64,000 nt of DNA, from contig CAVPIW010000007.1 of assembly GCA_963705105.1 (NCBI GenBank), positions 160,001-224,000 on the forward strand, given 5' to 3'. This document shows, piece after piece, positions 1 to 62,883 of the stretch (the first letter of the stretch is position 1; each line of letters starts with the position of its first letter). The translations under genes were made by a program, and so were the position numbers. The stretch is from an uncultured Nitrospiraceae bacterium. Its GTDB lineage: Bacteria; Nitrospirota; Thermodesulfovibrionia; Thermodesulfovibrionales; Dissulfurispiraceae. A model generated the notes under the pieces. The model worked only from the letters and a program-made list of their open reading frames with translations. It was not told where the DNA came from and searched no databases.

Positions 1-192
1 CAAAGGGTGGTCTGGTGACCGATAAGGTATCTTAGCGGAAAGGCTTTTCACCACATCAGCCTTCCCGTCGGTGCCTTTGTTGTCCCGTTTTTGTCTTTGC
101 CTGCTGTCTATTGTCTACTGTATTCTGTCTACTATTTATTGTGAAGCGGCGCATACGCCCCGCCTTTCCGCAGGGCTTACGCAACGATACGA
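1..192 (-). repeat. Fold-back repeat element, core type 1 (cut by window edge)
   Basis: Reverse complement reads ATCGTTGCG..GGAAAGGCGGGGCGTATGCGCC..GGGAAGGCTGATGTGGTGAAAAGCCTTTCCGCTAAGATACCTTATCG, matching the copies at 43434 and 62536. Confidence 0.9.
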
Positions 193-566
193 TTATATAA
201 GCTGTATATCTTCCACGCGACCATCCCGCCTGTCAGGTTATAGACGCCGGCGTATCCTTTCTTTTTCAGTCCGTACGCTATGAAGGGCGAGCGATGGCCG
301 GTCATGCAGATGACAACGATAGTTTTTTCATTTCGGGCCTGCAGGGCCTCCGCAAGCCCCTCACCAAGAGGGATATTCAGTGCCCCGGGTAAGTGAAACC
401 AATTGTATTCAGAGGGTGTGCGCACGTCGAGCAAGAGGACATCCTGACGGTTTCCGCCCGAAATTTCCCCGACACGCCAGGGCAGGAGCGGCTTCACACC
501 GAGGAGCGCCCAGAGCAGGTCCCATGTTATCAGGATGACAAGGAGGGAAAGCAGGACCTTTTTCAT
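177..566 (-). CDS. Rhodanese-like domain protein with N-terminal membrane anchor
   Basis: LLDVRTPSEY..HLPGALNIPL, CMTGHRS loop, NLTGGMVAW; start placed at MKKVLL. Confidence 0.85.
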   Translation of the reverse strand: MKKVLLSLLVILITWDLLWALLGVKPLLPWRVGEISGGNRQDVLLLDVRTPSEYNWFHLPGALNIPLGEGLAEALQARNEKTIVVICMTGHRSPFIAYGLKKKGYAGVYNLTGGMVAWKIYSLYNRIVA

Positions 567-956
567 ATTTAATAATATCACTATTGGCCGAAACAACACT
601 TTCCTATCACCTGACACTGACTTTTTGTCAGCACCTGACGTTAATGTCAATGTTCAGTGTTAATTCCTATCGGTGATTTCAAGAAAGCGATTGATATTAA
701 ATGGGACATCGACGTTAAGCAAAGTTAATCCCCTAAGGGGCATCCCCCTTTCCCTGCGTCATTTCACGCACAGCCTGCGTGAATTCAAGCACTCTTTCCG
801 CCTGTCCGGCTTCTCCCCGGCGTCACGACGCCTCACGGCGGAGGGCGATTAAACATATATTTATCAACGTATTAACATCTACTTTTCGGTGTTCGCGCTG
901 TGGCGCCCGACGGCATGAAAATCGGTTTGGGGCACCTCTAAAAATGACGCATTTGT

Positions 957-972
957 TGGCACTGTTCTTGAT
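957..972 (+). promoter_or_regulatory. Possible sigma54 -24/-12 promoter
   Basis: TGGCAC-N5-TTGA upstream of 1062; the -12 element deviates from TTGC. Confidence 0.3.
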
Positions 973-1061
973 CATAAGTAATAAGGATAAATACGGGTCG
1001 ACCATAAGAACCTCCTTAACGGCTGTTTCTCCCCATAGCGGGAGGAGGGATTTCCCAGACC

Positions 1062-7426: not shown

Positions 7427-7479
7427 ATTTTACAGTTGCCTGAAAAGGCGGGGCAAAGCGCCTCAAAGCCCTGGTGAAG
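7427..7479 (-). repeat. Isolated right end of fold-back repeat element
   Basis: Reverse complement CTTCACCAGGGCTTTGAGGCGCTTTGCCCCGCCTTTTCAGGCAACTGT. Confidence 0.8.
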
Positions 7480-8713: not shown

Positions 8714-8925
8714 ACACTGTAGTCACACAAAGGCGGGGAGAAGCGCCCCAAATCCTTGCTGAAGGCGACGATGAGCATTGGCAGATTCGTGTTTTAGGAT
8801 TCCGCTCTCTGTGTCATCGGCCATTAGCCTATAATTCTTCTTGCCTTTGGATACAGGTGTCGCCGCAGCAAGGTTTTCGGCGCATAGACCCCGCCTTTTC
8901 CGGAACGCGTATGCGACGATAAGGT
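8714..8925 (-). repeat. Fold-back repeat element, core type 2
   Basis: Colinear with 49437-49649; same terminal inverted repeats. Confidence 0.85.
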
Positions 8926-13579: not shown

Positions 13580-13610
13580 CCGATAGATCCATTGTACCAT
13601 CATTGGTGTC

Positions 13611-13657
13611 CAAAATAACGCGACACGAGGATAGGGCATGATTTCTTCGCATAATAA
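13611..13657 (+). repeat. About 50-bp dispersed motif B (CAAAATAA..ACGAGGATAGGGCATGATTTCTTCGCA)
   Basis: Also at 23772, 44816 and 60967-61016 (reverse). Confidence 0.85.
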
Positions 13658-13856
13658 ACCCTCATCACCGCAATGAGATCTCAGGAAAGACGGGGCGAAT
13701 GCGCCGAAAAGCATCGGTGCTGCGAAACCTCTGCCTTCCCGTACAGACCATTGCAAACCAACGATCGAACAAGATTAACCTTTTACGGACACTCACACTG
13801 ACACTGACACTGTTTTTCGGAGCGTTTTGCACCGTCTTTTCGTGCAAGGCAACCGT
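13658..13856 (+). repeat. Fold-back repeat element, core type 3
   Basis: Colinear with 44875-45069; ends GAAAGACGGGGCGAATGCGCC / GAGCGTTTTGCACCGTCTTTTCGTGCAA. Confidence 0.85.
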
Positions 13857-13960
13857 GAATTATGCTTCAGAAACCACACCCTATCCTCGTTTTCAAAGTC
13901 CGGCTGCACAATATTTTGGACAGGGGTGTTGTACCATACGGCTTCACGCCCTTCCCCTTC

Positions 13961-16900
13961 CTATCGCACCCCCGTCGTGCAGGAGAGATTTTTCGGTTCC
14001 GAGAAGGTGATGACGACGACGCGGTTCTGCTGCGACGGATCGAACTCCCACCGGCATTCCGTCAGCTTCTGACCGTTCCTGCCGGCGGAGAACCTGACCG
14101 TCCTGATGCCCCCTGACGACATCTGGTATGTCGTGTTCTTCTTCTCTCCCGGCATGATGCGGTTCGTCGGCCCGAACTGTTCCGAGTCGATGGCGATGTG
14201 GACCGGGTTCGACGAGGTGTTCTTTATCTCGGCAGAGAGGTTGCGATATCCGGACGTTGTCTGGCTCCCCGACGACTGCTGCGTTCCTCCCTGTGTCGAC
14301 GTGCCTGCTCCTGCCGGGTAGCCCTCGACGCGGCTGTGACCTGCGCCGCCTGAGCCCTGATTCTGCGCCCACGTGGACGGCTGGGAGTCGGCAATGGTGT
14401 ATGTGCCCGCCGGTATCGTCACATTCGGATAGACTCTCCAGTACGCGTTTTTCACCCCGCCCTGCCCCGGCGAGCCCGTTGCCTGCCAGGGGCCGTACGT
14501 TTTTCCGCCGCTTCCCTTGAGCGAAATACTCCCCGGTGACGATGTCCCTGAACCGTTGTTCCAGTGGTAATTCTGGATCATCGTGACGACATGAGACTGG
14601 TTGATGGTAAAGGTCGTCGCTTTCGTCGGCGCATTGTACACGCCGCCTATATTGCCGTTGTCAAAGATGACCCTGCCGCTTTGTGGCGGAGTAGACTCGC
14701 CTGCTCCCGTCCCGTTATCACTCACTGAGGACCCTCCCGCCGTCCCGGACTTTATGAGTGTTATGCCTCTCAGACAGAAGCCGGGGGCGGCGTCACCGTG
14801 GTAATATTTCTTGTCGAAATCGTGCTGCCGGAAGCGGATGCCTGTGACGACGCTTCCTGACGGCAGCGGAAAGACGTTCAGCCATCTCTTGTCTCCGAGA
14901 TGTGAATCCTTCGGAAACTGGTGATCGGCGCCGCTCCCCTCGCTCCTGTTCCATTCGGACGAGTGCACACCGGCCTTGATGTCGAAGACGCGGTCACCTG
15001 TGGTGGTCTGGACGGTGATCGTCGTGACGGTCATGCCCTGTTTCACGTTGTGGGCGTTGTCGAGATTGGAGACAATTGCGATGGAATTGGCCGTCACCGG
15101 TGATGGCAGCGGGACGGCGAGGCTCATCCTCTTCTCGTGAGTCGCCTTGAGCCTGATCCATGAACCGTCATCAACTTCGATGTCCTTCACCTTCCGGGCC
15201 GATCCCTTCTTGCCGCCATAGGGAGTAAGGTCGACGTGGTAATACGGCGATGACACGGGCGTCCTGATGTCGTCCTTTGTCGGCGTCTGCACCGGCGGCC
15301 TTGTGTCAGCGGGATCCGGCGGCGGCACGACAGGGTCGGCCGGAGGTTGTACGGTGTTCGCCGATGCGATCACCCTTTCCAGGTCCTTCGTCGCGGCGAC
15401 CCGCTTGTCGCTTGACCAATAGGAGAGACTTTCCCTGCACTTTGCAAGGGCTTCTTTATTCCTGCCCTGTTTCGCCAGCGCGGAACACTCGTCCCAGAGC
15501 CTGTCCGCCGTCGCCCTGTTCTGCTGTTCCCTCTTTGTCTGCGCCACCTGTGCTTCCATATCCTTCACAGCGGCCTGACGTTTCTCACTGCTCCAGTGTG
15601 TGAGGCTTTCCCGGCACTTCGACAATGCGCCTTCCAGGTTGTTCTGTTTCGCCAGGCCCGAGCATTGATCCCACAGCTCATCGGCTGTCCTCTTCTTCGC
15701 CTCTTCCTGCTGTCGCTTCGCCTCTTCCTGGGCGACGGTCCGCTCCATGTCTTTGAGTGCGGACGTTCGTTTGTCGTTCGGCCAGAGCTTCACGCTCTCG
15801 TTGCACTTGGCAAGTGCCTCGCTGTTCCTGCCCTGCTTCGCCAGTGCGCTGCACTCGTCCCAGAGCCGGTCCGCAGCGGCCTTTTTCTCTTCGTCCTGCT
15901 TCTTCTTACCCTGCTCCTGGGCGACGAGTTTCTCCAGGTCGCGCACGACTGCCGACCTCTTCTCGTCAGGCATGATGGCCACGCTCTCGCGGCACCTGGC
16001 AAGGGCCTCGCTGTTCCTGCCCTGCTTCGCCAGCGCGCTGCACTCGTCCCAGAGCTTGTCCGCCGATTTTTTAGTTTTATCCTGCTCCTCCTGCTCTTTT
16101 TTAACCTGCTCGTCTTTCAGCTTCTTGTCTTCGGCGAGCTTTTGTGCGAGGACCTGCTCGGTCTCCACCACCGTCTTGTATTTCGCGTTGATGCGCTTCG
16201 CCTGTTCGAGGGCGGTCTTCGCCTCGTCGAACTTCTTCGCCTTGATCTGGTCCTGGGCCTTCGAGACATGGGCGTTGATCTGCTGCAGGTCCGACGACCA
16301 TTTCTGCCCGAGCTTCGGGGCGTCCTCGTTCTTCGGGTCGATCTTCTTGGCGTCATTGAGCAGGGCAATCGCCTCCTCGATCTTCCCGTTTATGTACAGG
16401 CCTTCAGCCTGCTTCACTTTCTCATGGGCGGCCTTCATGTCTCCCTGTTTCTTCGCCTTCGTGTCGGCAATCTGCTTTTCCGCATCCACCACGGGTTGGT
16501 ATTTGGGGTGAATCGCCTTTGCCGCCGCAAGGGCCTTTTCGGCTTCCGCAAGGTTGTCGGCCTTGAGGGCGTCCTTCACTTTCGCCACATCGGTGTCGGC
16601 CTGCTGCTTCTCCCTGGTCCACTTATCGGCAAGGAGCCTCGCTTCGCCGTTTTTCGGGTCTATCTTCGCTGCCTCATTCGCGAGCTGGATACCCTCCTGG
16701 AGTTTCCCCTGGGCGACGGCCTTGTTCGCCTGGTCGAGCTTCTCCGCCGCTGCCTTCACCTTTTCGTTCTTCTTCACCCGTGCGTCGGCGAACTGCTTTT
16801 CGGCGTCGACGACGGGCTGGTATTTGGGATGAAGCTTCTTCGCCTCCGTCAGCTCCCTGGCTGCATCTTCAAGCTTTTCGGCCTGGAGGAACGACTTCAC

Positions 16901-19900
16901 CTTCCCGACGTGGTCGTCCGTCGTCTGCTTCTCGGCGCTCCACTTGTCGGCCAGTTGTTTTGCCTCGGTGTTTTTTGAATCGAGACCCTGGGCCTCCTTC
17001 GCGAGGGCGATGCCTTCCTGGAGCTTCCCCTCGGTGACGAGCTGTTTCGCCTTCTGCAGTTTCTCGTGCGCCTCTTTCGCCTTCTTGCCGCTGTTGATCA
17101 TCTCCTGCGAAATCGAGACAGTCAGGGTCTGGGAACCCGCGCCGAGCTTGATCCCGTCCTTTGTCGCCTCAGCCGTGATCGTGTAGGTCCCCGTGTTGCT
17201 GCACTGGACCCTCAATTCGGAACCGCCGCCCGGCATCCCGCAGCTTCCCGAGGGGTCCACCGTCCAGTTATAGTTGACGCCCTCGACGGCAGGTGTCACC
17301 GACGCCTTGAAGAAGATCGCTTCATGAACGGCGAACTGCGTCGGTTTTACCTGCACCATGCCGCAGTCCTTCGCGTGGCCCAACTGGGTGTCGCACTTCC
17401 ATATCTGCGGAGGGGTGCCGAGGTATTTCGGCTCCGAGACGGTCACGGTGTAACCAAGCGGCGTAATCGTCACCTGTTGCTTGCCCAGTTCATCGCCGCC
17501 GTCGACGGCCTTTGCCGTCACCGTCGCCGTGATCGGCTTCGTGTCCTTCGGCTTGATCGTCGCCTTGCTCCCGGTGCCGGTGTGATATCCCGGGATGTCC
17601 CAGAAGAGCGAGACCATGCTCTCTCCCATGGGCGGCTTCGTGACGGCGCTCAGGAAAAGCTCCTTCCCGAGATAGGCCTCTTTGGGCGTATAGGTGATGA
17701 TAACCTCAGGGTTTACCGCCTCGACGGTGATCTGCTCCGACTCCCCAACGGTGGCGAAGCGGCCCTCGATCTCCTTGAGCACCTGCACCCAGACCTTCGC
17801 CGGCCCGGGACGGGAAAAGCGGGCGCTGTTGCGCATCTGAGAACCGCCCGTCTGCTCGAAGGTCGGGGTCTTCGGATCGCCGAAGGCCAGTTCGGGATGG
17901 GGCTGCCACTGGTACTTGAAGCTGCCGCCCGCATTGTTCTTGCCCGACATGACATTGGCGATAAACTTCGCCGTGCCGCCCACGGGAATCGTGTCTTCCT
18001 TGGGCGACTCCTTCTCCAGCTTGACGATGATCGCCTGCACCTGGATAGTCACGGTATCGGAGGCCGAGTTTCCGTCCTGGTCCGTCACCGACACCGACAC
18101 GGAGCCGCCGCCCGCCGTCCTGGTTTTGACGAACTTCGCGTTGGCGTCTTTCGCGTCTTCCGCGGCGCCGCCCCAGGTCCACTTATTGCCGCCCGAACCA
18201 CCCGTCGTCTCGGCATAGAGCGTCACGATATCGCCGAACTCGGCGGGGTTCTTCGACGGCTTGATCTTCACCTTCAGGGGATCGGTGTGCTTCCGGTTCT
18301 CGTTCTTGCGGTCCTTGTCCGCATCTGCCAGCTCCTTGTCGCTCGGGTCATGGCCGTAGGCGCCCTTGTAGCAGGACTTCACATGATCGGGCGGCCCGCC
18401 GGGAACGGGCGTCCTCCAGCCGCTCAGCCATCCGAAGCAGACGCAGGGCCCGCCCTTCTCCGTCGTGCTCGGCCCGTAGTAGCCGCCGGCGGTCCCGCCG
18501 CAGGCCCTGCAGAGGCAGTTCAGATAATCGGTCCTCTTGTCCGCCTCGGTCTTCGGCGGTGTGCATACCTGCTCCAATGCGGGCTTATCCCTCTCAACGC
18601 ATCCGGCCGGTTCCTTCGCGATGACGGACCGGGTCTGTATCTTCTTTTCCCGCGGGCACTCGCCCCACTCGGAATACTTGTACGTGCAGACAGGCGGCTC
18701 CTTCTTCCCGTCATCCTTCTTTCCGCTATCCGTCTTTGTATCCTCGGGCTTTGTAACGCCTGTGATGTCGTCCCCCGGCCTTGTATCCTCAGGCTTGGCT
18801 CCGTCAATCTTCTTGTCGTCAGGCTTGTCCTTCTTCTTCGTCACATAAACAGTCGCATGGGTCTCGGCCTTCCTCCCCTTCTCATCGGTCACCGTGAAGG
18901 GGACAGTCACCCAGTTCTCGTTGTCCCTGAAGGACGTCTCCGGAAAAGTGACGACCGTCTGGCCCGGCGGCATTCGGACGCCGTTGAAGGACAGACTGCC
19001 GCTGTCCTTCAGGGGAACAGCGGTGACGACAAACGTTATGGTCTGATCGTTCATGATGCTCGCGTTTTCAGGCACGACGGAGACCTGGAGCTTCGGGCTC
19101 AGGTCTGCATCGACCACCTTTACAGGCGCTGTCTCCTTTTCGGCGGACCTGCCGAACTTGTCGCGCACCACCACCTTCAGCCGCACCGTCTGCCCTGCCA
19201 GGCCCCGCGTCGACAGGTTGCTGCAGCGCGTCACCGTGTTGGGACGCCAGAATTTGCCGTCCTCGTCGAACCATTCAAAGGCGAGCCTGTCGCCGGGGTC
19301 TCCCGGCCTCAGGGCGGGGCTCTCGACGCAGACGACGAGGGTCTTGTTGTCCTCGATCTCCTCGGGAACAGGACCGAGCTTTATGACGATGTCTCCCTCA
19401 GGCCCGACAGTGAGGGATTTTGCGGCCTTGCCTTCCCTCAGGATCTGCCCGTAGGTCGGGCTGCCGGGCGTGTTCCCGATGTCCAGGACGAGGAGCGTCA
19501 CGTCGATCCTGTCTCCTTCCCTGTATTTCCGGGGATCGAGCTTGACGGACTGAACCGTTTCGCTGCTGACCCAGGGAGCGCCGCCGTTTGTGACGACGGT
19601 CCACTGGTATTTCATCCTGCCGCTGTCGACCTTCCTGATGACATCGGACTTCAGGGTCACCGGGTCTTCACCAGACAGAACCGTAATCTCGGCGGGCAGG
19701 ATGCGGACCGTCAGTTCGTCCTTGTCACTGTCGGAAACGGTGACGGGCAGATGGAACTCTTCGGTATACCCCATGCTTGTCCTGGCCTTGACGCCGATAG
19801 TCACCTTTTTTCCCTTTCTGCCCAGGCCCGAAAACTGGTACGTGCTCCCGGTGAATTTTATGTTCCTCTTGCCGTCCTCGGACCAGGCGTATTCGAGGAG

Positions 19901-41805: not shown

Positions 41806-41898
41806 ACTATTGCTGTGCCGGGCTTTCTTCGAGGTTGTCAACGTGCAGAATAAAATCGTCGCGTCTCTTATTGAAGTTTCCCGGGCCGATACAACACA

Positions 41899-42829: not shown

Positions 42830-42912
42830 AAAGAGAAAAAGCAATGAGACTAAAAAGGGGAGGATGAATGACTCACCCTCCCCTTCGAACGGTCGGAAAG
42901 ATCTGTGTTGCC

Positions 42913-43293
42913 TTAGATCTTCTTCATCTCCACGCCGCAGGTGCATTTGCCGGGGTTCTGGCCGATGGTGTCGCACTTGCACTCGGGGGGACAGGCGCAG
43001 GCATACTTGCCGTTGGTCTTGAAGGCCCTTGCCTTCTCCCAGCCTTCGGCCTTCATGGTCGCCGTGCCTGCCTCGGCCTTGACGACCTTCGCCTTCACCA
43101 TTTCCTTGCCGCAGGTGCATTTGCCGGGGTTCTTTGAAAGACTGTCGCAGGGGCACTTCTCACCGCAATTGCAGGCATAAATCTCATCGCCCGCCTTCAG
43201 GTCCATCTTGCCCCTCGAACCGGCAAACGAGAACGCCACCATCGCCATCGTCAGCACAACGGCGATAACCACCAAAAAAGTCTTCTTCGCCAT
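42913..43293 (-). CDS. Secreted protein with two Cys-rich heavy-metal-binding-like repeats
   Basis: YACxC..C.C...NPGKCTCGxEM twice. Confidence 0.85.
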   Translation of the reverse strand: MAKKTFLVVIAVVLTMAMVAFSFAGSRGKMDLKAGDEIYACNCGEKCPCDSLSKNPGKCTCGKEMVKAKVVKAEAGTATMKAEGWEKARAFKTNGKYACACPPECKCDTIGQNPGKCTCGVEMKKI

Positions 43294-43433
43294 ACATTAC
43301 CTCCCTGATTTATTTACGACATGTTTATTATAATGAACAGGTTATTCCCCTGTCAAACGGGCCTTGCACAGGGGGAGAGGGAGTCAATAAGGGTGCTTGA
43401 CGGGTTGACTTTCGTCCATCCATCAAGTAAGTT

Positions 43434-43801
43434 ACCCTTATCGTGTGCAACACACGCCCGGGAAAGGCGGGGCGTATGCGCCACATAACACTAATTAGTA
43501 GACAGAATACAGTAGACAATAGACGGAAAGCGAAGACAGGAACCAGATGACAAATACATCGACGGGATGGCTGGTGTGGTGAAAAGCCTTTCCTCTAAGA
43601 TACCTTATTCATCCCCAGACCACCCTTTGCCGTGTCTGTCGATACCAAAAGCCCGTCAGGCAACAGGCGCTGAACACCTGGAGATGTCTCATCATCGCAT
43701 TGGAAAGGCTTTGAACCATATCTGCCTTCCCGGAGGAAGTATCGTCGCCTTCAGCAAGGCTTTGAGGCGCTTCGCCCCGCCTTTTCATGCAACGACAGGG
43801 G
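43434..43801 (+). repeat. Fold-back repeat element, full-length type 1
   Basis: ACCCTTATCGTGTGCAA..GGAAAGGCGGGGCGTATGCGCC ... GGCGCTTCGCCCCGCCTTTTCATGCAACGACAGGG. Confidence 0.92.
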
Positions 43802-43810
43802 CACTTTAAT

Positions 43811-44797
43811 ATGTTGACCTATATTGCGAAACGCCTCCTCCTCATGATTCCCCTCATCTTCGGGATCACCCTGATCACCTTCGTCGTCATTCACCTCGCT
43901 CCGGGCGGGCCTGTCGAAGTCGAGACGGAGATGTCCCTCAAGGCGTCGGCCCAGGCGAGGGAAAACCTGAAGAAGCTCTACGGCCTCGACAAGCCTGTCC
44001 ACGAGCAGTACATCGACTGGATTTCCCGCTTCGTCCGCCTCGATTTCGGCGTCTCCTTCGTAGACGGGAAGGCCGTCGTCGCGAAGATCAGGGAACGGAT
44101 ACCCGTCACCCTGACGATCAACCTGCTGTCTCTCCTTCTCATCATGATCATCGCCATCCCCATCGGCGTCATCTCGTCGATCAGGCAATATTCCCTCTTC
44201 GACAAGATAACGACGGTCTTCGTCTTCGTCGGCTTTTCCACGCCCACGTTCTGGCTTGCCCTCCTGCTCATGATCGTCTTCGGCGTCACTCTCGGACTGC
44301 TTCCCATATCAGGCATCCAGAGCATCGACGTCTCGGGCATGACCTTCCCGCAGAGACTGGCCGACTGGGCGGCGCACCTCGTTTTGCCCCTCGGGCTGAG
44401 CGCCTTCGGGGGCATCGCCGGGCTCAGCAGGTACTGCCGGTCGAGCATGCTCGAGGTCATCCGCCAGGACTATATCAGGACGGCCCGTGCCAAGGGCCTT
44501 GCGGAAACGACGGTCGTCATCCGCCATGCCCTGAGAAATGCCCTGATGCCCGTCGTGACCATCCTCGGCCTTGCCGTGCCGGGACTCATCGGCGGCAGCG
44601 TCATCTTCGAAACCATTTTCGCCATTCCCGGCATGGGCCAGCTCTTCTACGCATCGGCCATGTCGAGGGACTACCCGACGATCATGGGCATACTCGTCAT
44701 CGGCGCTGTTCTTACCCTGATCGGCAACCTCATCGCCGATGTATCGTACGCACTGGTCGATCCGAGGATACGCCGCGAGGCCCCCGGAAAAGAGTAG
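43811..44797 (+). CDS. Peptide/nickel ABC transporter permease (DppB/OppB family)
   Basis: [25 protein letters not shown]. Confidence 0.95.
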
Positions 44798-44815
44798 ACA
44801 CCCGACCGATGGTAT

Positions 44816-45069
44816 CAAAAATAATGTGCCACGAGGATAGGGTATGATTTTTTCAAGATCTCGCTGCAACGTCGACCTTATCATTGCATACGCCCGACCT
44901 GAAGGCGGGGTGCATGCGCCGAAAACCTTCGGTACTGCGAAACCTCTGCCTTCCCGTACAGACCATTTCAGGCTGACGATCGAACAAATTAACCTTTTAC
45001 GGACACTCACACTGACACTACACTTTTTTTCAGAGCGCTTCGCTCCGCCTTTTCACACGCAAGAATAAC
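44816..45069 (+). repeat. Motif B plus fold-back element type 3 (44875-45069)
   Basis: Colinear with 13611-13856. Confidence 0.85.
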
Positions 45070-45083
45070 AACCAGGAGGTATC

Positions 45084-45338
45084 ATGAAAAATAACAGGTC
45101 GCTTGTGACAATGCTCGTCGGGGCTCTTCTTATCGCCCTGCTGCTCTGTGGCTGTTCGGGGAACAAGGCCGCCGAGCTCTTCGAGACGGCGAAATTCGAG
45201 GAGCTGCAGAACAACAGGCAGCACGCGATCGAGCTCTATGAGGAGATCGTCAAGAAGTATCCCGAGAGCGACCAGGCGAAAAAAGCCAAAGAGCGGCTCA
45301 CCCAGCTCAAGGGAGACAAGCAGGGCGCAACGCCTTAG
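45084..45338 (+). CDS. Small TPR-like lipoprotein
   Basis: AGGAGG RBS, LCGC lipobox, YEEIVKKYPES. Confidence 0.85.
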   Translation: MKNNRSLVTMLVGALLIALLLCGCSGNKAAELFETAKFEELQNNRQHAIELYEEIVKKYPESDQAKKAKERLTQLKGDKQGATP

Positions 45339-45362
45339 GACTCGGGGGGAGGTCGGCGACAA

Positions 45363-46205
45363 ATGCTGCGCATCATCTGGACACGATTCAGGAGGAACCG
45401 CCTCTCCGTCACGGGGCTCGTCGTCATCGTCCTTCTCGCCTGCATCGCCGTGCTCGCTCCCCTCATCGCCCCCTTCACGCCCACGGAGATCGACGTCTAC
45501 AATGCCCTTTCACCGCCGAACTTCTCCCATCCCTTCGGGACGGACGAGCTGGGCAGGGACGTGCTCTCGCGCATGATCTGGGGAAGCAGGGTTTCCCTCA
45601 GGGTGGGGTTCTTCGCCGTGGGCATCGCCATTCTGACGGGAACATTCGTGGGGTCTCTCGCAGGTTTTTACGGCGGCAGGATCGACGCCCTTCTTATGAG
45701 GTTCGTCGACATCATGCTCGCCTTCCCCACGTTCTTCCTTATCCTTGCCGTCATCGCCATCCTCGAACCGAGCATATCGACGATCATGATCGTCATCGGC
45801 CTGACGGGATGGATGGATGTGGCGCGCCTTGTGAGGGCCGAGTTCCTGACCCTCAAGGAACGGGACTTCGTGGCGGCGGCCCGCGCCGTCGGCGCGACGG
45901 ACAGCCGGATCATCGTGCGGCACATCATGCCCAATGCCCTCTCGCCCGTCTTCGTCGCCGCCACCTTCGGCGTTGCAGGGGCCATCCTGACCGAGTCGGG
46001 CCTCTCCTTTCTCGGCCTCGGCGTCCAGCCGCCCGACCCGAGCTGGGGGAACATCCTGACCTCGGGCAAGGACAACATCATCGTCGCCTGGTGGCTCTCC
46101 CTCTTTCCGGGACTTGCGATCCTCGTGACGGTCCTGAGCTACAACCTCGTCGGCGAGGGGCTGCGGGACGCCCTCGACCCGAGGCTCTGGACGAGCGACT
46201 CCTGA
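45363..46205 (+). CDS. Peptide/nickel ABC transporter permease (DppC/OppC family)
   Basis: HPFGTDELGRD, LSFLGLGVQPP, GEGLRDALDP. Confidence 0.95.
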   Translation: MLRIIWTRFRRNRLSVTGLVVIVLLACIAVLAPLIAPFTPTEIDVYNALSPPNFSHPFGTDELGRDVLSRMIWGSRVSLRVGFFAVGIAILTGTFVGSLAGFYGGRIDALLMRFVDIMLAFPTFFLILAVIAILEPSISTIMIVIGLTGWMDVARLVRAEFLTLKERDFVAAARAVGATDSRIIVRHIMPNALSPVFVAATFGVAGAILTESGLSFLGLGVQPPDPSWGNILTSGKDNIIVAWWLSLFPGLAILVTVLSYNLVGEGLRDALDPRLWTSDS

Positions 46206-46210
46206 CGGTC

Positions 46211-49141
46211 ATGACGGGACTGAACGGGAACGACCAGGGGCATTGCGATGTCTCGCCCTTCAGAGAGCATATCGAGCGCTGCCCCGACCCTGAGAGGGCT
46301 CTGAAAAATATCGAGACCTTCCTCATGACCCACCCGGGCCTGAGGGGACAGTTCGCGGCCCATGCAGGGCAGATCGCCCTGCTCTTCAGCGTGAGTCAGT
46401 TCCTTGCGACCTTCAGCACCAGGAATCCCGAGGTTCTCTTCACGGCCCTGCGAAACCTGAACAGGGTGCAGGGACGCGAGGACTTCCGGGACGAACTGAG
46501 GACATCCCTGGCTTTCTGCAACTCTCTCAGGGACGGCGTCAAGACCGTCCGTCTCTTCAAGAAAAAACACCTCCTCGTCATAACGCTGCGGGACATCCTG
46601 AAAAAGGGGGACCCCCAGGAAACGATGCTCGAACTGTCGGACCTCGCCGATGCCGTCATCGCCGAGTCCCTTCCCTTTGTCGAATCCTTCCTGAGGCAGC
46701 GGTTCGGCACGCCGGTGAACAACGGCGTCGTCATCATCGGTCTCGGAAAGCTGGGCGCGAGGGAGATCAACTACAGCTCGGACATCGACATCATCGTCGT
46801 TTACAGGGACGAGGGAGAAACATCGGGGGTCACGACACCCCAGGGCGCGTCGATGAACAGGATTTCGGCTTTTGAGTATTACGTCAAGGTAACGGAGGAG
46901 CTGAACCGTTTCCTCTCGTCGAATACGGAGGATGGTTTCGCGTACCGCGTGGACCTCCGTCTCAGGCCGCAGGGCCAGAGGGGAAGCCTCGCCATATCCC
47001 TGAGGGGATGCGAGGAGTATTACGAATCGTGGGGGCAGCTCTGGGAGCGGGCGGCGCTGATCAGAAGCCGGCCCGTCGCGGGCGATATACCGCTGGGACG
47101 GGAGTTTCTCGAATCGGTGAGGCCCTTCGTCTACCGAAAGTACCTCGACTTCGACGCCATCGAGGAGATCCGCAGAATGAAAGGTCAGGTCGAAAACCTG
47201 AAACCCGGCACCGTCAGCCTTGACATCAAGAGGGGCTACGGCGGCATCCGCGAGATCGAATTCTTCATCCAGGTGTTTCAGCTGATCTATGGCGGGCGGG
47301 TGCCGCTCCTCAGGGAACGGAGCACCCTCATGGCGCTCCACCGGCTCATGGAAAAGCGGCTGATCGGGCATGACGACTTTCAGCAGATCTTGGTCAATTA
47401 TGTCTACCTCCGCACTCTGGAGCATCGCCTCCAGCAGTTGAACGACGTGCAGACCCATACCCTCCCCACGCAGGCGGCGGACCTGGACATCCTTGGCCGC
47501 AAGATGGGGTTTCCGGGCAGGGAGGAATTTCTGTCAGACCTCGACCGGAGGAGAGGAAAGGTACGGGAGATCTACGACTCGCTGCTCGAGGTCGGCCAGG
47601 GGAAAAAGGCTGCCGGAGAGGGCAAACCCGATGCGGGGACCATCCTGAGCAGTGTCTTCTGGGACATGGAAATGCCGATCGAGCATCTCCTGAAGGAGGA
47701 GCTCTCCAAAGCCGGCGCCAGGGACATCGCCCGGTCGACGCGCTGCCTCATGAAAATCAAGGCGAACATGACGTCCTTTCAGACCATCAGGGGAAGGAGG
47801 CTCCTCGAAAACATCGTCCCGAGATTCGTCGACGATGCGCTGCGCGGGGCCGATCCCGACCTCGCTCTCCTGCAGCTCGTCGACTTCACGTCGATCCTCT
47901 CTTCGAAGGAAGCCTATCTGGAAGCCATCTTCGACAGGGACCAGCTGATTCCCATCCTGAACTTCGTCTTTTCCAACAGCGAGTACCTGTCGAAGATGCT
48001 CATGAGCAGTCCCGAGTACATCGAATCTCTCGTCGAGGGGATCGTCAGGAAGAAGACGGCCCGGGCGATGGCAGGAGAAGCGCAGGTCCTTATCGACCGC
48101 TACGGGGACTCGAAGGCGATCCGCTTTTACCGGAGGATGGAAGAGATGCGGCTGGGCATGCTCTTTCTGGACAGGAAAATCTCCGTCCGGGAGCTTCTCA
48201 GGGCGCTGAGCATGCTCGCCGAGGTGATCCTCGGCGCCCTGCTGTCCGGAGAGGGCCTGCTGAAGTCACCGTCCCCTCCTGCCGCCCTGACAGTCATCGG
48301 CTTCGGGAAACTGGGCGGCCGTGAGATCACCTTCAATTCCGACCTCGACATCACCTTTGTCACCGCCGGCTCTCCGGCGGCATCGGACGTGAAGACAGCG
48401 GAGACCCTCCTCAAGATGCTCATGTCCTATACGAAAGACGGCATCGCCTACCAGGTCGACACCCGGTTGAGACCCGAGGGCAGCAAGGGGCCGCTCGTCA
48501 ATTCCCTTGCCGGAGTTTCGGAGTATTACCTGAAATCGGCCAAGGGCTGGGAAATCCAGGCTCTGCTGAAGGCCCGGACCGTTTTCGGCTCCATGAGCAT
48601 GAGGCGGCTCTTCTCGGAGATGCGGACCGATGTCCTCCTCAGCCGCTCCGCGGAGATCACCTTTGCCGAAATGCAGCACATGCGCGAACGGATCCAGCGG
48701 GAGCTTTCGCGGGAGAGACCGGGACAACAGGGATCGGGGAGTCCGGCAGGAATGCAGGAATCACAGCAGGGAGGCAGTTACGACATCAAGCTCGGTCCCG
48801 GAGGGCTCGGAGAGCTCGAATTCTCGGTCCAGTTCCTGCAGCTGAAGCACTGCCGCGAGCACGCGGACGTGCTCGCCCAGGGCACAATCGACGCTGTCCG
48901 CCGTCTGCACAGGGCGGGCGTTCTCGACGACGGGACGATGCGTGAAATTTCAGAGGTCTATGCATTTTACAGGACGATCGAAACCATCCTGAGACTGCGC
49001 AACGAGACACATCTTAAAGTGGAGAGCAGCGCTTTTCAGAGTCTCCTTCACATCACCGGAATGGATGCCGATCATTTCCTCCGGTACCTCAACGAAAAGA
49101 GACGGTGGACCGGCGACTTCTGGAATTCCCTGTCAGGCTGA
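46211..49141 (+). CDS. glnE: Glutamine synthetase adenylyltransferase
   Basis: Two GKLG.RE..SD.D domains, VDLRLRP, WERAAL, GGIREIEF. Confidence 0.95.
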   Translation: MTGLNGNDQGHCDVSPFREHIERCPDPERALKNIETFLMTHPGLRGQFAAHAGQIALLFSVSQFLATFSTRNPEVLFTALRNLNRVQGREDFRDELRTSLAFCNSLRDGVKTVRLFKKKHLLVITLRDILKKGDPQETMLELSDLADAVIAESLPFVESFLRQRFGTPVNNGVVIIGLGKLGAREINYSSDIDIIVVYRDEGETSGVTTPQGASMNRISAFEYYVKVTEELNRFLSSNTEDGFAYRVDLRLRPQGQRGSLAISLRGCEEYYESWGQLWERAALIRSRPVAGDIPLGREFLESVRPFVYRKYLDFDAIEEIRRMKGQVENLKPGTVSLDIKRGYGGIREIEFFIQVFQLIYGGRVPLLRERSTLMALHRLMEKRLIGHDDFQQILVNYVYLRTLEHRLQQLNDVQTHTLPTQAADLDILGRKMGFPGREEFLSDLDRRRGKVREIYDSLLEVGQGKKAAGEGKPDAGTILSSVFWDMEMPIEHLLKEELSKAGARDIARSTRCLMKIKANMTSFQTIRGRRLLENIVPRFVDDALRGADPDLALLQLVDFTSILSSKEAYLEAIFDRDQLIPILNFVFSNSEYLSKMLMSSPEYIESLVEGIVRKKTARAMAGEAQVLIDRYGDSKAIRFYRRMEEMRLGMLFLDRKISVRELLRALSMLAEVILGALLSGEGLLKSPSPPAALTVIGFGKLGGREITFNSDLDITFVTAGSPAASDVKTAETLLKMLMSYTKDGIAYQVDTRLRPEGSKGPLVNSLAGVSEYYLKSAKGWEIQALLKARTVFGSMSMRRLFSEMRTDVLLSRSAEITFAEMQHMRERIQRELSRERPGQQGSGSPAGMQESQQGGSYDIKLGPGGLGELEFSVQFLQLKHCREHADVLAQGTIDAVRRLHRAGVLDDGTMREISEVYAFYRTIETILRLRNETHLKVESSAFQSLLHITGMDADHFLRYLNEKRRWTGDFWNSLSG

Positions 49142-49159
49142 CCTATTTTGATAACCAGT

Positions 49160-49398
49160 GCGTGCACCTTCCGGAAGGCGGGCCGACGCGTCTCAAATCC
49201 TTGCTGATATCGACGCTGTCTTCGGGAAGGCAGATATGGTTCAAAGCCTTTCCAATGCGATGATGAGACATCTCCAGGTGTTCAGCGCCAGTTGCCTGAC
49301 GGGCACTTGGCATTGATAGACACGGCAAAGTGTGGTCTGGTGATAAACAAGGTATCTTAGAGGAAAGGCTTTTCACCACATCAGCCTTCCCGGTCGGC
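49160..49398 (-). repeat. Fold-back repeat element type 1 (left end missing)
   Basis: Reverse complement matches 43560-43790. Confidence 0.9.
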
Positions 49399-49436
49399 TG
49401 TTCGGGGCCTTCTTCCGACTACTGACGACTGTCTCT

Positions 49437-49649
49437 ACCTTATCGTTGCAATACACTCCCGGAAAGGCGGGGTGTATGTGCCGAAAACCTTGCTGCGGCG
49501 ACACCTGCATCAAGACGAAAGACAAACTATACGCAAATGGTCGATGACACAAAGAGTGGAATCCTGAAACACGAAGATGACAATGATCATCGTCGCCTTC
49601 AGCAAGGCTTTGAGGCTCTTCGCCCCGCCTTTTCATGCAACTGTAGGGT
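49437..49649 (+). repeat. Fold-back repeat element, core type 2
   Basis: ACCTTATCGTTGCAA..GGAAAGGCGGGG..CCTTGCTGCGGCGAC ... GTCGCCTTCAGCAAGG..CGCCCCGCCTTTTCATGCAACTGTAGGGT. Confidence 0.9.
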
Positions 49650-49771
49650 CTATACTTTGCGCTCCTTGCGGCTTTGCGTGCGTGAGTCAAAAATACTGCC
49701 GGGCTCACATCAATGCTAAAATGAAGATATAAGCCGCATGCCCCAAGTATCCGTGCCCGGGAGGTTGAACG

Positions 49772-51709
49772 ATGTCGAACAGACTGAAAGACGCAAGAAG
49801 CCCTTACCTGAGAAAGGCCGCCGATCAGCCCGTTGACTGGCATGAGTGGGGAGACGAGGCCTTCGAGAAGGCCCGCAGGGAGGACAGGCCCATATTCCTT
49901 TCCATCGGGGGCGTCTGGTGCCACTGGTGCCACGTCATGGCCCATGAGAGCTTTGACAACGAGGAGATCGCCGGTATTCTGAATAGTCATTTCGTTCCCG
50001 TCAAGGTCGACCGCGACGAGAGGCCCGACATCGACCGCCGGTACCAGGATGTCGTCCTGAGCATTGCCGGAAGCGGGGGATGGCCCCTCACGGTCTTTCT
50101 CACTCCCGAGGGAAAGGCCTTCTTCGGCGGCACCTATTTCCCTCCTGATGACAAGTGGGGGAAGGCAGGCCTGAAGCAGCTCCTGGGGAAGATCATCGAC
50201 CTGTACAGCCAGAAAAGAGAGGAGATCTTCGGCCTCGCCGAAAACCTCTATCGCCAGAGCCTCTCCTTCTCCTCCCAGGACATGAAATCGGACGTCGACG
50301 AGGGACTCATCGAAAAGGCGGTGGGGAAATGCCTGTCCTCCGTCGATTACGACCACGGGGGTTTCGGGTCGGCGCCGAAGTTCCACCACGCCATGGCATA
50401 CGAATTCCTTCTCAATTACAATTATTTCGCGAAGGATGAGAGGATCGCACGTGCCGTCGGCGTTTCCCTCGACGGCATGGTCCGGGGAGGCATTTACGAC
50501 CACCTTGCCGGCGCCTTCTTCCGCTATTCGACGGACGAGAAGTGGATCGTCCCCCACTTCGAGAAGATGCTCGCCGACAATGCGGAACTGCTGAAGGTAT
50601 ACTCCATCGCCTATCAGGTCACGGGGAACGAGCTCTACCGGTACGCCGCCGAAGGCATCGTCGATTATTACAGGCAGTTCGGCATGGATGACAAGGGCGG
50701 TTTCGCTGCGTCACAGGATGCCGATATCGGCGTCCTTGACGAGGGAGGCTACTATACCTTCAGTCTCAACGAAGTGAAGCCGCTCCTGACGGGCGCGGAA
50801 CTGGAGGTGATGCGCCTCCACCTCGATATCGACGAACAGGGTGAAATGCATCACGATACCTCGAAAAACGTCCTGTACATGCGCCGCAGCGCCGAAGAAG
50901 TCTCCGCGAAGCTGCAGGTGCCCGTCAAAACCGTCGGGGACCTCATCTCTTCGGCGAAGGATAAGCTGAGAAAGTACAGGGAAGAGCGCGAGATGCCTTA
51001 CATCGACAGCACAATCTACACGAACTGGAACAGCCTCATGATCGAGGCTCTCTGCAGGGCCGGCATCGTCTTCGGCACGAGCGAATACCACGATATGGCC
51101 CGGAAAACGGCCGATCTGCTCCTGAGGGAATTCTACAAAGACGGCGCCGTCCTGCACTGTGAGGGCGTCGAGGGACTATCAGAGGATTACATCTTTTTCG
51201 CCAAAGGGCTCCTGGCACTCTTCGAGGTGACCCAGGACGCGACATATCTCGACGTTTCGGTGCGCCTGATCGACAGGGCCATCGAGCTTTTCTGGGATGG
51301 AGACAACTGGGGGTTCTTCGATACAACCAGGAGGGACAGGGGCTACCTGACGATCCCGATCAGGAATATCCAGGACACGCCGAACGAGTCCGTCAACGGC
51401 ATCGCCCCGCTCATTCTCCTCACCGTCGGGACACTGACGGGCGACATGACGTACATCGATTACGCGGGAAAGAACCTGCAGGCATTCTCGCAGCTCACGG
51501 CTGAATACCCCACCGCCACCCACTCCTATTTCGTCAGCCTCCTCGCATACCTCAGGGGCATGTACAAAGTCGAGACGTCGCGCTTCTTCGACGAGGCGCT
51601 CAGGGACTTCAGGCCCTACAAATTCGTCCTGCGGAAAGACGTCCCCGGCGTCGTTGTCTGCGAGAAAGACACCTGCAGGACCTTCGAATCCTATCCTGGC
51701 AAACCTTAG
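49772..51709 (+). CDS. YyaL/SSP411-family thioredoxin-domain protein
   Basis: SPYL..PVDW, WCHWCHVMAHESF, GGWPLT, PHFEKML. Confidence 0.95.
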   Translation: MSNRLKDARSPYLRKAADQPVDWHEWGDEAFEKARREDRPIFLSIGGVWCHWCHVMAHESFDNEEIAGILNSHFVPVKVDRDERPDIDRRYQDVVLSIAGSGGWPLTVFLTPEGKAFFGGTYFPPDDKWGKAGLKQLLGKIIDLYSQKREEIFGLAENLYRQSLSFSSQDMKSDVDEGLIEKAVGKCLSSVDYDHGGFGSAPKFHHAMAYEFLLNYNYFAKDERIARAVGVSLDGMVRGGIYDHLAGAFFRYSTDEKWIVPHFEKMLADNAELLKVYSIAYQVTGNELYRYAAEGIVDYYRQFGMDDKGGFAASQDADIGVLDEGGYYTFSLNEVKPLLTGAELEVMRLHLDIDEQGEMHHDTSKNVLYMRRSAEEVSAKLQVPVKTVGDLISSAKDKLRKYREEREMPYIDSTIYTNWNSLMIEALCRAGIVFGTSEYHDMARKTADLLLREFYKDGAVLHCEGVEGLSEDYIFFAKGLLALFEVTQDATYLDVSVRLIDRAIELFWDGDNWGFFDTTRRDRGYLTIPIRNIQDTPNESVNGIAPLILLTVGTLTGDMTYIDYAGKNLQAFSQLTAEYPTATHSYFVSLLAYLRGMYKVETSRFFDEALRDFRPYKFVLRKDVPGVVVCEKDTCRTFESYPGKP

Positions 51710-52110
51710 TGTTGCATGCTCCGGACATGAAGGCGGGGCGTATGCGCCACCGTGATAGTCAATAAGTCATTGAGTCACTAAGTCATTGAACGACAGTCGA
51801 CAATGGACACAAAACCGCGTGCGTCACGACGGTAAGGCTGATGTGGTGAAAATCCCTTCCGCTAAGATACCTTATCGATCACCAGACAACCCTTTGCCGT
51901 GTCGATCGATGACACAGGACCGTCAGGCAACCGGGGGCTTAACACCTGGAGAGGTCTCATCATCGCATTGGAAAGGCTTTGAATCATATCTGCCTTCCCG
52001 GAGGGCAGACGTTTGGGATGAAATCATGATAAACGAACTTGGAATGATCAATCTCGCAATCAGCGAGGCTTTAAGGCGTTTTGCCCCGCCTTTTCGCGCG
52101 ACTGCAAGGT
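51703..52110 (+). repeat. Fold-back repeat element type 1 with internal insertion
   Basis: ACCTTAGTGTTGCA..GAAGGCGGGGCGTATGCGCC ... GGCGTTTTGCCCCGCCTTTTCGCGCGACTGCAAGGT. Confidence 0.9.
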
Positions 52111-52120
52111 TTACTGTGCC

Positions 52121-53623
52121 GTGAGACTGCTCCTCATCAACTCCAACATGTTCATGCAGCCCTGGCCCGTGATCCCCTACGGCCTGTGCTGCATTGCCGC
52201 CTCGGCGGAGGAGGCCGGCCACGACGTCAGGGTCCTCGACCTGTGCTTCTCCAGGCATCCCGGGAAAGACATCGCGGACGCCGTCGCCGCCTTCAGGCCG
52301 GACGTCATCGGCATCAGCATCCGGAACATCGACAACGCCGTAGGATACAAGACTCGATTCCTCCTCGATGATGTCCGGGAGCGCGTTATCATCCCCTGCA
52401 AAGAGTGCTTCAAGGGACCCATGCTTATCGGCGGCCCCGCCGTCGGCATCAGCGGCCGGGAGATGCTGAGCTTCTTCGACCTGGAATACGCGATACGCGG
52501 CGACGGGGAACAGGCTGTCCTCGAGTTCCTGAGACGAATGGAGAGCGGCGCTCCTCTTGAAGGCATGCCGGGACTGATCGTCCGAAGGGACGGACAGATC
52601 ATCGCCGACAGCGAGCCCCTGAGGGTCGAAAACCTCGATGTCCTGCCCCGTGTCAGCCCTTCCCGTTACGTGGATATCGCCGCATACAGCCGCGTCAACT
52701 CTCCCCTGCAGATCCAGACGAAAAGGGGCTGCGCCCTTCACTGCTCCTACTGCACCTATAACCGCATAGAAGGCGTCCGCTACCGGCTCAGGGACCCCTC
52801 GGCCGTAGCCGATGAAATCGAGCGTCTTGTGAAGGAAACAGGCATCAACAGGATCGAATTCGTGGACAGCACCTTCAACATCCCCCTGCCCCACGCCAAA
52901 GCCGTCCTGAGAGAACTCATCCGAAAAGACCTCCACCTCGATCTGCGCACCATGGGACTGAATCCCGGCGCCGTCGACGAGGAACTGGTGAACCTCATGA
53001 AGCAGGCGGGTTTCCGTGAAGTCGACCTCGGCGTCGACTCCGGGTGCGACGCCATGCTGAGAAACCTGGGCAAGAACTTTCTGAAGGAGGACGTGCTGAA
53101 GGCCGGAAAACTCCTCCGGGAGAAAAACATCCCCGTGAAATGGTTTCTGCTCCTCGGCGCTCCGGGGGAGAACAGGGAGACCATACGCGAGACCTTCGAC
53201 ACCGTCCTGCACGCCGCGTCCCCCTGGGACCTGATCGTCATCGCCGTCGGCATGCGCGTCTACAACGGATCACCCGTCGCCGACCTCGTCCGGCAGGAAG
53301 AGCCGTCGGCGGCGAAGGACGACTTTCTCTATCCCGTGTCTCTTCCCGAAGGGACGACCATCGATCCGGGGGAATTGAAACAAATCGTCAAGACCGAGTC
53401 TTTCAGGCGGGATAATTTCTTTCTTTACAGTGACGACGAAAAGACCCCGCTGCCGGTGCTCGTCGCCGGGACGGCGCTGATGAGGATCTTCACGCCCCGT
53501 CAGCCCCTGTGGCGCCTCTTCATCGTGAAAAGGAAGATCGAGTCATTCACCGGCCTGCGCCGAAGGAAGGAGAGGCAATATTTGAAGCAGATCGGACGGA
53601 GGATAAGGCCATCCCTGCCCTGA
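52121..53623 (+). CDS. Cobalamin-binding radical SAM protein
   Basis: N-terminal B12-binding domain (GISIRNID, GGP, GDGE); TKRGCALHCSYC. Confidence 0.93.
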   Translation: MRLLLINSNMFMQPWPVIPYGLCCIAASAEEAGHDVRVLDLCFSRHPGKDIADAVAAFRPDVIGISIRNIDNAVGYKTRFLLDDVRERVIIPCKECFKGPMLIGGPAVGISGREMLSFFDLEYAIRGDGEQAVLEFLRRMESGAPLEGMPGLIVRRDGQIIADSEPLRVENLDVLPRVSPSRYVDIAAYSRVNSPLQIQTKRGCALHCSYCTYNRIEGVRYRLRDPSAVADEIERLVKETGINRIEFVDSTFNIPLPHAKAVLRELIRKDLHLDLRTMGLNPGAVDEELVNLMKQAGFREVDLGVDSGCDAMLRNLGKNFLKEDVLKAGKLLREKNIPVKWFLLLGAPGENRETIRETFDTVLHAASPWDLIVIAVGMRVYNGSPVADLVRQEEPSAAKDDFLYPVSLPEGTTIDPGELKQIVKTESFRRDNFFLYSDDEKTPLPVLVAGTALMRIFTPRQPLWRLFIVKRKIESFTGLRRRKERQYLKQIGRRIRPSLP

Positions 53624-61576: not shown

Positions 61577-61861
61577 TCACCGGTCCTCCTTTCCCTGTTT
61601 CTTCGCAACCCTGAAGAGTTCCCTGAAGCCCGCAATGATCCCGAAGATCAGGAAAATGAACGACAGCCAGGGTTTCGTCCCGAAGAGACTGTCAAGGCCG
61701 TAGCCCATGGCGAGACCGGCAAAGGTGCAGAGGACGAGGTGGATGCCGACGGAAAAGGCGTAATAGACATCTTTGTCGAAAATGTTTCCCGAGAGTTGCC
61801 GGAAAAAGGATTTCTTCTCTTCCTTTTCGTCTTTTTTTCTTTCAGTTTTTTCGTCGGTCAA
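61577..61861 (-). CDS. AtpZ/AtpI-family protein
   Basis: GLAMGYGLDSLFGTKPW..FGIIAGFREL. Confidence 0.88.
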   Translation of the reverse strand: MTDEKTERKKDEKEEKKSFFRQLSGNIFDKDVYYAFSVGIHLVLCTFAGLAMGYGLDSLFGTKPWLSFIFLIFGIIAGFRELFRVAKKQGKEDR

Positions 61862-61935
61862 TGGGCACCTCCCCTCTCCTGCCGCCGCATCAAACGGCAG
61901 ACCTTTTGTGATGCGACCCGGTCAAACGACCATGC

Positions 61936-62469
61936 TCACGCCGGGGATTCATTCTCAGATAGTATATATTCCCTGAGCAGCTTTGCAACTTCCCTGTAGA
62001 AAACCGTTCCGGCCGTAGCCTCCAGCCTGTCGCAGAAATCAGGCACCCAGAGGAGGAGGTGTTCATCGAGAAACCTCCTCTGGGGTTCTTCCATGTCATG
62101 CCAGACAAGATAGCTCATAAAGATCAGTTCCGCTGAAATATGGTCGGGTATCAGGTCGAACTCCTCATGAATGACCAGACCGACGGACCTGTAAAACGTC
62201 GCCGCCTCTTCTGCCGCTCTGCCCCTGAATCCCGGTCTGTCTCCGATCGAGTACCGGTAAAACGATTCATAGGGAGGGACGGCAGGATGAGGAAGGCCAA
62301 AGAGAAAGCGAAAGTCGCCGCCGACCTCCTCAACGGTCTCTTCGAACGTGAGCGGCAACATCTCCTTCATCTCGATCAACTCTTCGGCGGTCGGCTCCTT
62401 CATAAAGAGGCCGGCGAAAAGATTGTACAGCTCGTAACGCTCTATATCATCGTTCTCAAAAAGTGCCAC
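61936..62469 (-). CDS. TorD/DmsD-family molybdoenzyme chaperone
   Basis: PPYESFY, PDHISAEL.FM, FLDEHL..W. Confidence 0.9.
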   Translation of the reverse strand: MALFENDDIERYELYNLFAGLFMKEPTAEELIEMKEMLPLTFEETVEEVGGDFRFLFGLPHPAVPPYESFYRYSIGDRPGFRGRAAEEAATFYRSVGLVIHEEFDLIPDHISAELIFMSYLVWHDMEEPQRRFLDEHLLLWVPDFCDRLEATAGTVFYREVAKLLREYILSENESPA

Positions 62470-62474
62470 AATAA

Positions 62475-62883
62475 ACCCAAACGTCGATACCCCCTCGGGA
62501 AAGGCGGGCTGTGTGCACCACGAACAGTGGATAATACCTCATCGTTGCAACACACTCCCCGGGAAGGCGGTGCGTATGCGCCGCTTAACAATAAACAGTA
62601 GACAATAGACAGCAGGCAAAGACAGGAACGAGACGACAAACACACCGACGGGAAGGCTGATGTGGTGAAAAACCTTTCCGCTAAGATACCTTATCGATCA
62701 CCAGACCACCCTTTGCCGTGTCTATCGATGACAAAAGTCCGCCAGGCAACAGAGACTGAACACCTGATATGTCTCACCATCGCATTGGAAAGGCTTTGAA
62801 CCATATCTGCCTTCCCGGAGGCATCATCGCCTTCAGCAAGGCTTTGAGGCGCTACGCCCCGCCTTTCCATGCAAGGACAAGGT
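62475..62883 (+). repeat. Left-end fragment (62475-62520) plus full type 1 element (62536-62883)
   Basis: ACCTCATCGTTGCAA..GGGAAGGCGGTGCGTATGCGCC ... GGCGCTACGCCCCGCCTTTCCATGCAAGGACAAGGT. Confidence 0.92.

Follow-up and report, generated by a model that had tools for sequence, protein, structure and literature searches.

Bacterial miniature transposons (MITEs) such as Correia/CREE, ERIC and QMITE are small, multicopy, intergenic elements with terminal repeats borrowed from insertion sequences, a target duplication and a stable stem-loop (PMC4133298, PMC10969869), and their load reaches up to 2% of a bacterial genome (PMC9330008). Correia elements also have an IHF site (PMC10969869). TIMEs, which are derived from Tn3, keep a fixed length of 262 bp across hosts and show conserved core stretches, similar predicted folds and mosaics, but have Tn3 ends and a 5–6-bp duplication and occur mostly as a single copy per genome (PMC4133298). 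Among autonomous elements, the IS1380 family includes ISEcp1 and ISPme1, and its transposition pathway has been described as not known (PMC9330008); ISPa33a has a 4-bp direct repeat and a 16-bp inverted repeat, and ISPsp9 a 5-bp duplication (PMC4133298).

The repeat family reported here resembles bacterial MITEs in its small size, many intergenic copies, borrowed terminal repeats, target duplication and stable stem-loop, and resembles TIMEs in its fixed length, conserved core stretches, predicted folds and mosaics. It differs from known MITEs in its IS1380 ends, a load of up to 3.7%, its arm combinations and nesting, and a class-wide layout with lineage-specific self-complementary arms, and from TIMEs in its hundreds of copies per genome. 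REP/REPIN elements, which go with RAYT, have GC-rich inverted arms about 130 bp apart, as this family does; unlike them, the family has DDE-type termini and a duplication, and no RAYT is flanked by its ends. In the literature searched, no IS1380-ended MITE was described, and IS1380 is named 0 times in a MITE review (PMC10969869); the MITE catalogue behind PMC11602168 may hold these sequences.

In the assembly (hereinafter G000; 4.23 Mb, 19 contigs), a weight matrix of the end core gave 1,008 sites above 18 bits, compared with 0 in a shuffled genome, and 1,070 above 16 bits, compared with 6. Facing end-core pairs at most 500 bp apart numbered 372. BLAST with duplication-bearing copies returned 738 loci covering 155,671 bp (3.7% of G000), which is an upper figure in which shared passenger repeats are counted; the load is about 500–700 loci, up to 3.7% of the genome. 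Copies were 160–410 bp long with a mode at 211–213 bp, and lacked a transposase, the longest ORFs in short copies being below 100 aa. A sequence neighbour at 98% identity or more was found for 32 of 277 copies. Intergenic placing, as claimed in a first-pass annotation, held genome-wide: only 1 of 252 polar copies extended over 60 bp into a called gene, with genes taken from a rough gene caller (3,408 genes, 76% coding). No match to the family was found in the plasmids and viral contigs searched.

The window, that is, the whole 64-kb stretch of DNA analysed, contained 16 end-core matches, and the family with bipartite inverted ends and three interiors that the first-pass annotation had recognised was present at the places it named. 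Five copies were full, with both termini. The 210-bp copy at 8715–8924 (+) was of the main B1-M1-A type, with a decayed left terminus and the 4-bp duplication TTTA on both sides, and the young 211-bp B1-M1-A copy at 49438–49648 (−) had the duplication TCTA and shared 99% identity with one on a different contig. The other three were long copies with the ML core: a 365-bp B1-ML-E copy at 43436–43800 (−), a 406-bp B2-ML-E copy with a lost duplication at 51704–52109 (−), and a 346-bp B1-ML-E copy at 62537–62882 (−). The remaining window copies were nested, truncated or decayed. These included the right-end part of a long copy (ML core, E arm; 1–192, −), cut by the window start and with a decayed right terminus, a truncated copy made of a solo left end and the start of a B arm (7428–7479, +), a decayed long copy with the ML core (49160–49434, +), in whose E arm the copy at 49438 was inserted, and a decayed solo right end (62476–62520, +). 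The sequence at 42635–42828 (−) was a truncated long copy with part of the ML core, the B1 arm and the left terminus; the start assigned to it earlier, at 42634, is an internal look-alike of the right end, with no terminus there.

Three further copies that had been placed at 13658, 23819 and 44875 did carry end cores, but were located inside a second, unrelated repeat family. They were an approximately 195-bp copy with C and D arms nested at a TAAA target (13660–13856, −), a fragment of the same nested junction with the right terminus only (23819–23846, −), and an approximately 193-bp copy with C and D arms adjoining a remnant of the second family (44876–45068, −). The second MITE family was approximately 243 bp long and occupied about 56 sites genome-wide, with ends CAYTGGTGTCCAAAA...TTTTGGACAGGGGTG that resembled those of an IS4-like element in G000 (C12:145379) and with 9-bp duplications; its copy at 13601–13928 (no strand assigned), with IS4-like ends, was flanked by the 9-bp duplication TTGTACCAT. 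The family described here rode as a passenger in this and many other second-family copies, and the nested junction seen at 13601–13928 was common to 22 of 69 second-family matches. A 3,215-aa ORF at 13961–23608 (−) encodes a probable large secreted or surface protein.

The element boundary was set by aligning 380 termini. Both ends carried a 13-bp imperfect inverted repeat, CCTT-N3-GTTGCA, so that the true ends are CCTT...AAGG; the inverted ends proposed at first were confirmed, except that the element starts at CCTT and the leading A belongs to the flank. Among 232 pairs with both termini scored, 110 had 4-bp direct repeats at their flanks, against a mean of 12.4 and at most 20 in shuffles, and repeats of other lengths were shifted echoes only. 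The commonest targets were TTTA (22), TTAA (19), TAAA (12), TGAA (8) and TATA (7). The TA target suggested earlier is thus replaced by a 4-bp duplication at T-W-W-A; because the duplication is 4 bp long, the flanking TAnA corresponds to this target. Retention of the duplication tracked copy age: where a copy had a neighbour at 97% identity or more, the duplication was kept in 33 of 42 cases, and where that identity was below 85%, in 6 of 52. The element is polar, with distinct left and right ends: the left (short) terminus paired with left arms B1, B2 and C in 352 cases versus 10, and the right (long) terminus with right arms A, D and E in 345 versus 14.

Contigs of four public runs were compared with window positions 41500–53500. 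Two of the four (X2 and X5, from two studies) skipped 369 bases at 43434–43802, the shorter side of the joint covering 255 and 124 bases; the missing stretch is, to the base, the 365-bp copy and a single 4-bp duplication. In addition, runs X3 and X5 yielded contigs that lack the block at 44802–45073. Among the 15 joints listed of 107, none was an empty joint of this kind for the copies at 49438 and 51704. Within G000, the joined flanks of 37 of 277 copies matched uninterrupted paralogues; at least ten of these were clean empty sites by eye, the rest being self-overlaps or gapped, and the clean ones lay inside the family itself, other palindromic repeats and the second MITE family. A search for empty sites, proposed in the first-pass annotation as a check on mobility, thus returned both an exact 365+4-bp site for 43436–43800 and paralogous sites. 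Inverted repeats at the termini, a duplicated target, empty sites and copies numbering in the hundreds between genes bear out the suggestion of a MITE-like mobile family; the family is a set of real gene-less miniature transposons and, as MITEs, of an ordinary kind.

The family, which the first-pass annotation could not assign to a named one, has the ends of an IS1380 clade. Of 30 PF13701 loci examined in the class, three carried these ends, and their transposases passed the NCBIfam model NF033539 (IS1380) with 224–241 bits (cut-off 180). Across 124 loci of that clade collected for end comparison, the sequence was CCYNNNAGTTGCATAAA at the left end (109 ends) and CCYNANCGTTGCATAAA at the right end (104 ends); the flanks had T at −4 and A at −1 (T-W-W-A), and a 4-bp duplication was present in 35 of 91 complete copies. 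IS1380 (NF033539, PF13701) and the MITE thus match in one clade in end pair, left/right asymmetry, 4-bp duplication and target, and the traits of IS1380 type found in the family include the 4-bp duplication and an inverted repeat starting with CC. In contrast to IS1380 elements, the family has no transposase, is 160–410 bp long, and contains long inner inverted arms that are missing from the IS right end. Many clade members (e.g., L090 and L142) carry in their left ends a second inverted repeat, located at +55 to +125, that brackets the likely transposase promoter and ribosome site.

Of the 11 genomes checked, most of them fragmented assemblies, two (G247 and G500) contained a clade transposase together with MITEs that have identical ends. 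Both 13-bp termini were common to IS and MITE in G500, and in G247 the left ends agreed at 18 of 18 bases, including the rare GTGGCA variant. The absence of a transposase with these ends from the window, as first noted, extended to the whole G000 assembly, which gave no PF13701 match and no tblastn or blastn match with the IS1380 partners. No close transposase was found in G191, G004, G114, G384, G484, G577, G450 or G422, where only weak matches to other clades were obtained. Among the 13 end pairs more than 500 bp apart in G000, none was an autonomous partner: 11 bracketed ordinary DNA, and the other two held IS3-like and ISL3-like ORFs (family names by sequence reading). The ISL3-like ORF was rejected as a partner; it sits inside the element and has its own ends. 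Judged from the sequences, the repeats are very probably MITEs with the ends and T-W-W-A footprint of this IS1380 clade, likely copied in trans by its DDE transposase. An enzyme of this clade, lost or unassembled in G000, would be the likely mobiliser.

The three interiors that had been distinguished all exist, but they are not the only ones. Seven arm combinations were present among 252 polar copies: B1-A (103), C-A (59), B2-D (41), C-E (17), B2-E (7), C-D (7) and B1-E (4); B1-D and B2-A were not found among them. All larger combination classes carried duplications. In the B1-A subfamily, linkage fell with distance (rho −0.18, 0/1000 permutations), copies differing at 15–33 sites shared identical runs of 85–102 bases, and the four-gamete test gave a rho of 0.135 in the middle, which was significant only in B1-A. 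Linkage decay was weaker in B2-D and in G004 than in B1-A, and no recombination signal was found in the ML core (p 0.31). In addition, copies nested in one another, and 6–7-bp tandem repeats and a GTAG-type REP were also present outside the element. The long ML core resembled sister-MITE interiors of G384 and G004. We infer that recombination between copies, their nesting and the capture of other repeats best account for the interchangeable cores. Copies would recombine with one another, as seen in patches of 85–100 identical bases shared by otherwise different copies, and would insert into one another, giving mixed interiors. The GTAG-type REP, the 6–7-bp tandem repeats and a sister-MITE interior (the ML core) would be captured passengers.

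Among these repeats, the 6-bp tandem repeat that forms the C arm also formed inverted arrays on both sides of a PF05635 four-helix-bundle gene (G000:C9:319934–320251). Since 107 of its 362 matches lay outside the element, it was regarded as captured, and the gene, one of two four-helix-bundle genes viewed to be flanked by the repeat, was rejected as a mobiliser. IS1634-like, ISL3-like and IS3-like elements were found inside MITE copies (G000:C10:241237, C6:856901 and C6:829976; names by sequence reading), and an IS256-like element, also named by sequence reading, was present in 18 near-identical copies.

The family goes beyond a plain MITE in having a class-wide layout of about 212 bp with self-matching, slowly changing inner arms. 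Of the 301 genomes covered in the class, 21 had at least 5 matches to a pattern of end plus arm motif (AA-N4-TT-N5-7-GCGA), and by hand count these belonged to 6 families; a reversed-pattern control never exceeded 3 per genome. A strict pattern was found in G000 and G004 only among 401 genomes, and looser patterns in many more. In 11 picked lineages, full copies were 204–216 bp long, with the motif at +37–39 from one end and +47–50 from the other and the two motifs 126–130 bp apart (120 in G484); longer or motif-less relatives also exist (220–289 bp, 60 bp). A young burst of a 215-bp sister MITE, with copies about 99% identical, was seen in G191 (L236, L238–L249), which had 105 end-plus-motif matches in a 1.9-Mb assembly without a cognate transposase. 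The 18 bases before the motif matched the copy's own other arm at 14.3 of 18 positions, compared with 8.5 for the arms of other lineages (0/20,000 permutations). Across the 11 lineages, 22 of 32 predicted pairs changed on both sides (0/500 shuffles), with the structure derived from the same alignment. The inner arms therefore differ by lineage yet remain self-complementary.

Within G000, the arms changed 3–10 times more slowly than the ends. Private changes per site in B1-A were 0.3–0.6% in arm2, 1.0–1.4% in arm1, 3.5% in the middle and 3.8–5.2% at the invariant terminal bases; this order was repeated in B2-D and was alike for G/C and A/T columns. Selecting copies on their middle alone gave 155 full-length copies among 157, with 9.4% change in the ends, 1.9% in the arms and 6.3% in the middle. 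The resulting divergence profile along the element was W-shaped, and the same shape was obtained in G004 from the best 30 of 40 BLAST copies, a set that leans to the conserved interior. Eight double changes restored arm pairing, compared with 0.7 expected, and on internal branches A-C wobbles outnumbered G-T (17 versus 1, in few columns).

A candidate docking site for an IHF-like protein was recognised in the arms. The binding consensus of IHF is WATCARNNNNTTR, and the protein assists a transposon end (PMC10201428); the MITE arm motif fits this consensus at 5–7 of 9 positions and departs from it in the GATW part. A motif at +37 was common to MITE and IS1380 left ends, and an IHF-like site at +34–42 was present in 12 of 51 non-redundant IS left ends (null mean 2.0, maximum 8). 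G000 contained an ihfA-like gene above the cut-off and an HU gene; no ihfB-like gene was found there. The arm motif would be a predicted binding site, probably for a bending protein of the IHF type, and would have come from the left end of the IS. The offset of the motif between the two ends (+37–39 versus +47–50) would equal one helical turn, and bending would make it easier for the ends of a 212-bp element to meet; such a site is proposed as the reason for the fixed element length. Whole-element lengths of 204, 212–216, 264 and 275 bp may fit helical phasing, but 195 bp and the long classes do not. The C-A class (195 bp, 59 copies) lacked the left motif and had duplications at the usual rate.

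How the arms are maintained bears on the main competing explanation. The arms would stay self-complementary through arm-to-arm copying combined with copy-to-copy conversion, and arm-to-arm conversion has been reported for IS terminal repeats (PMC3004938). Simple edge effects of conversion predict a U-shaped profile, and the observed W-shape counts against them. Alternatively, the ends may derive from IS1380 with the inner arms kept after insertion by selection on a fold-back structure or a host-protein site, making the copies domesticated RNA-processing or chromosome-organising elements. The slow change of the arms relative to the ends in B1-A, in B2-D and in copies picked by their middle, the covarying pairs across lineages, and the change of only 2.6% in the arms of copies with at least 5 terminal mismatches all favour selection, as does the folding of single copies far below shuffles (z −0.7 to −10.5, 12 sampled). 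On the other hand, unpaired arm positions were as fixed as paired ones, so that pairing alone does not explain the pattern, and arm-to-arm copying in any inverted repeat yields "compensatory" changes without selection. Copies showed no strand bias in co-directional gaps (95 versus 81, p 0.33), and gaps between convergent genes had no excess of them (34/250 versus 243/1,787); with genes from the rough caller, these results also spoke against a terminator role. There was no Rfam match. We consider selected arms rather unlikely. An equally doubtful variant is that the arms form a functional module, with a class-wide 204–216-bp design, two phased protein sites and a lineage-specific stem shielded from post-insertion change, in which hundreds of copies have been domesticated as bending or RNA-processing elements or the arms are rewritten by dedicated "core swapping" while the ends decay. 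The self-pairing of arms across lineages, as read from their sequences, may leave room for a fold-back structure role.

The remaining explanations each invoke another mobiliser, and Y1, RT and IS630 genes, among the classes that the first-pass annotation had proposed to check for an ORF bracketed by the same ends, do exist in G000; none was bracketed. A REPIN-type reading, with a Y1 (RAYT/TnpA) transposase moving the elements by way of their GC-rich hairpins, as the earlier REP-like label may suggest, is very improbable. Four Y1 transposases are present and a GTAG-type REP (73 matches in the genome, 42 near an end core) lies inside some copies, but none of the four genes is flanked by these ends, the family has a 4-bp duplication and DDE-type termini, and the REP, which also occurs alone, is a passenger. 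This REP palindrome was seen standing alone and inside 18 polar copies. The four Y1 transposases have other flanking repeats, and one Y1 gene (L004; G000:C7:291273–294602) lies in an integron-cassette-like region and has its 5' end partly duplicated in tandem. A mobile structured RNA, also suggested at first and here taken as copied by a reverse transcriptase, is more improbable still: the fold is stable and rod-like and G000 has one RT gene, but that gene is not bracketed by the ends, the terminal repeats are identical to those of a DNA transposon, the duplication is fixed at 4 bp, neither a tail nor truncation polarity is seen, copies are not biased in strand relative to neighbouring genes, and Rfam gave 0 matches at gathering score in the 64 kb and 0 at E up to 1 in 43300–52300. 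Finally, an IS630-type MITE targeting TA, for which T and A flank both ends, 149 of 232 pairs give a 2-bp match at a one-base shift and one IS630-type gene exists in G000, can be dismissed, since the 4-bp duplication accounts for the 2-bp signal as its inner part, none of the 13 long end pairs contains the gene, and the empty site lacks the element plus 4 bp, a length that refutes it.

As MITEs with IS1380-clade ends, the family provides a defined set of IS1380 substrates in which the ends are minimal, the target is T-W-W-A and length has a natural optimum. The layout shared by 21 genomes with co-varying arms lets the need of short elements for host bending be tested. In addition, the 500–700 recombining copies offer a clear natural example of gene conversion between repeats scattered through a bacterial genome.
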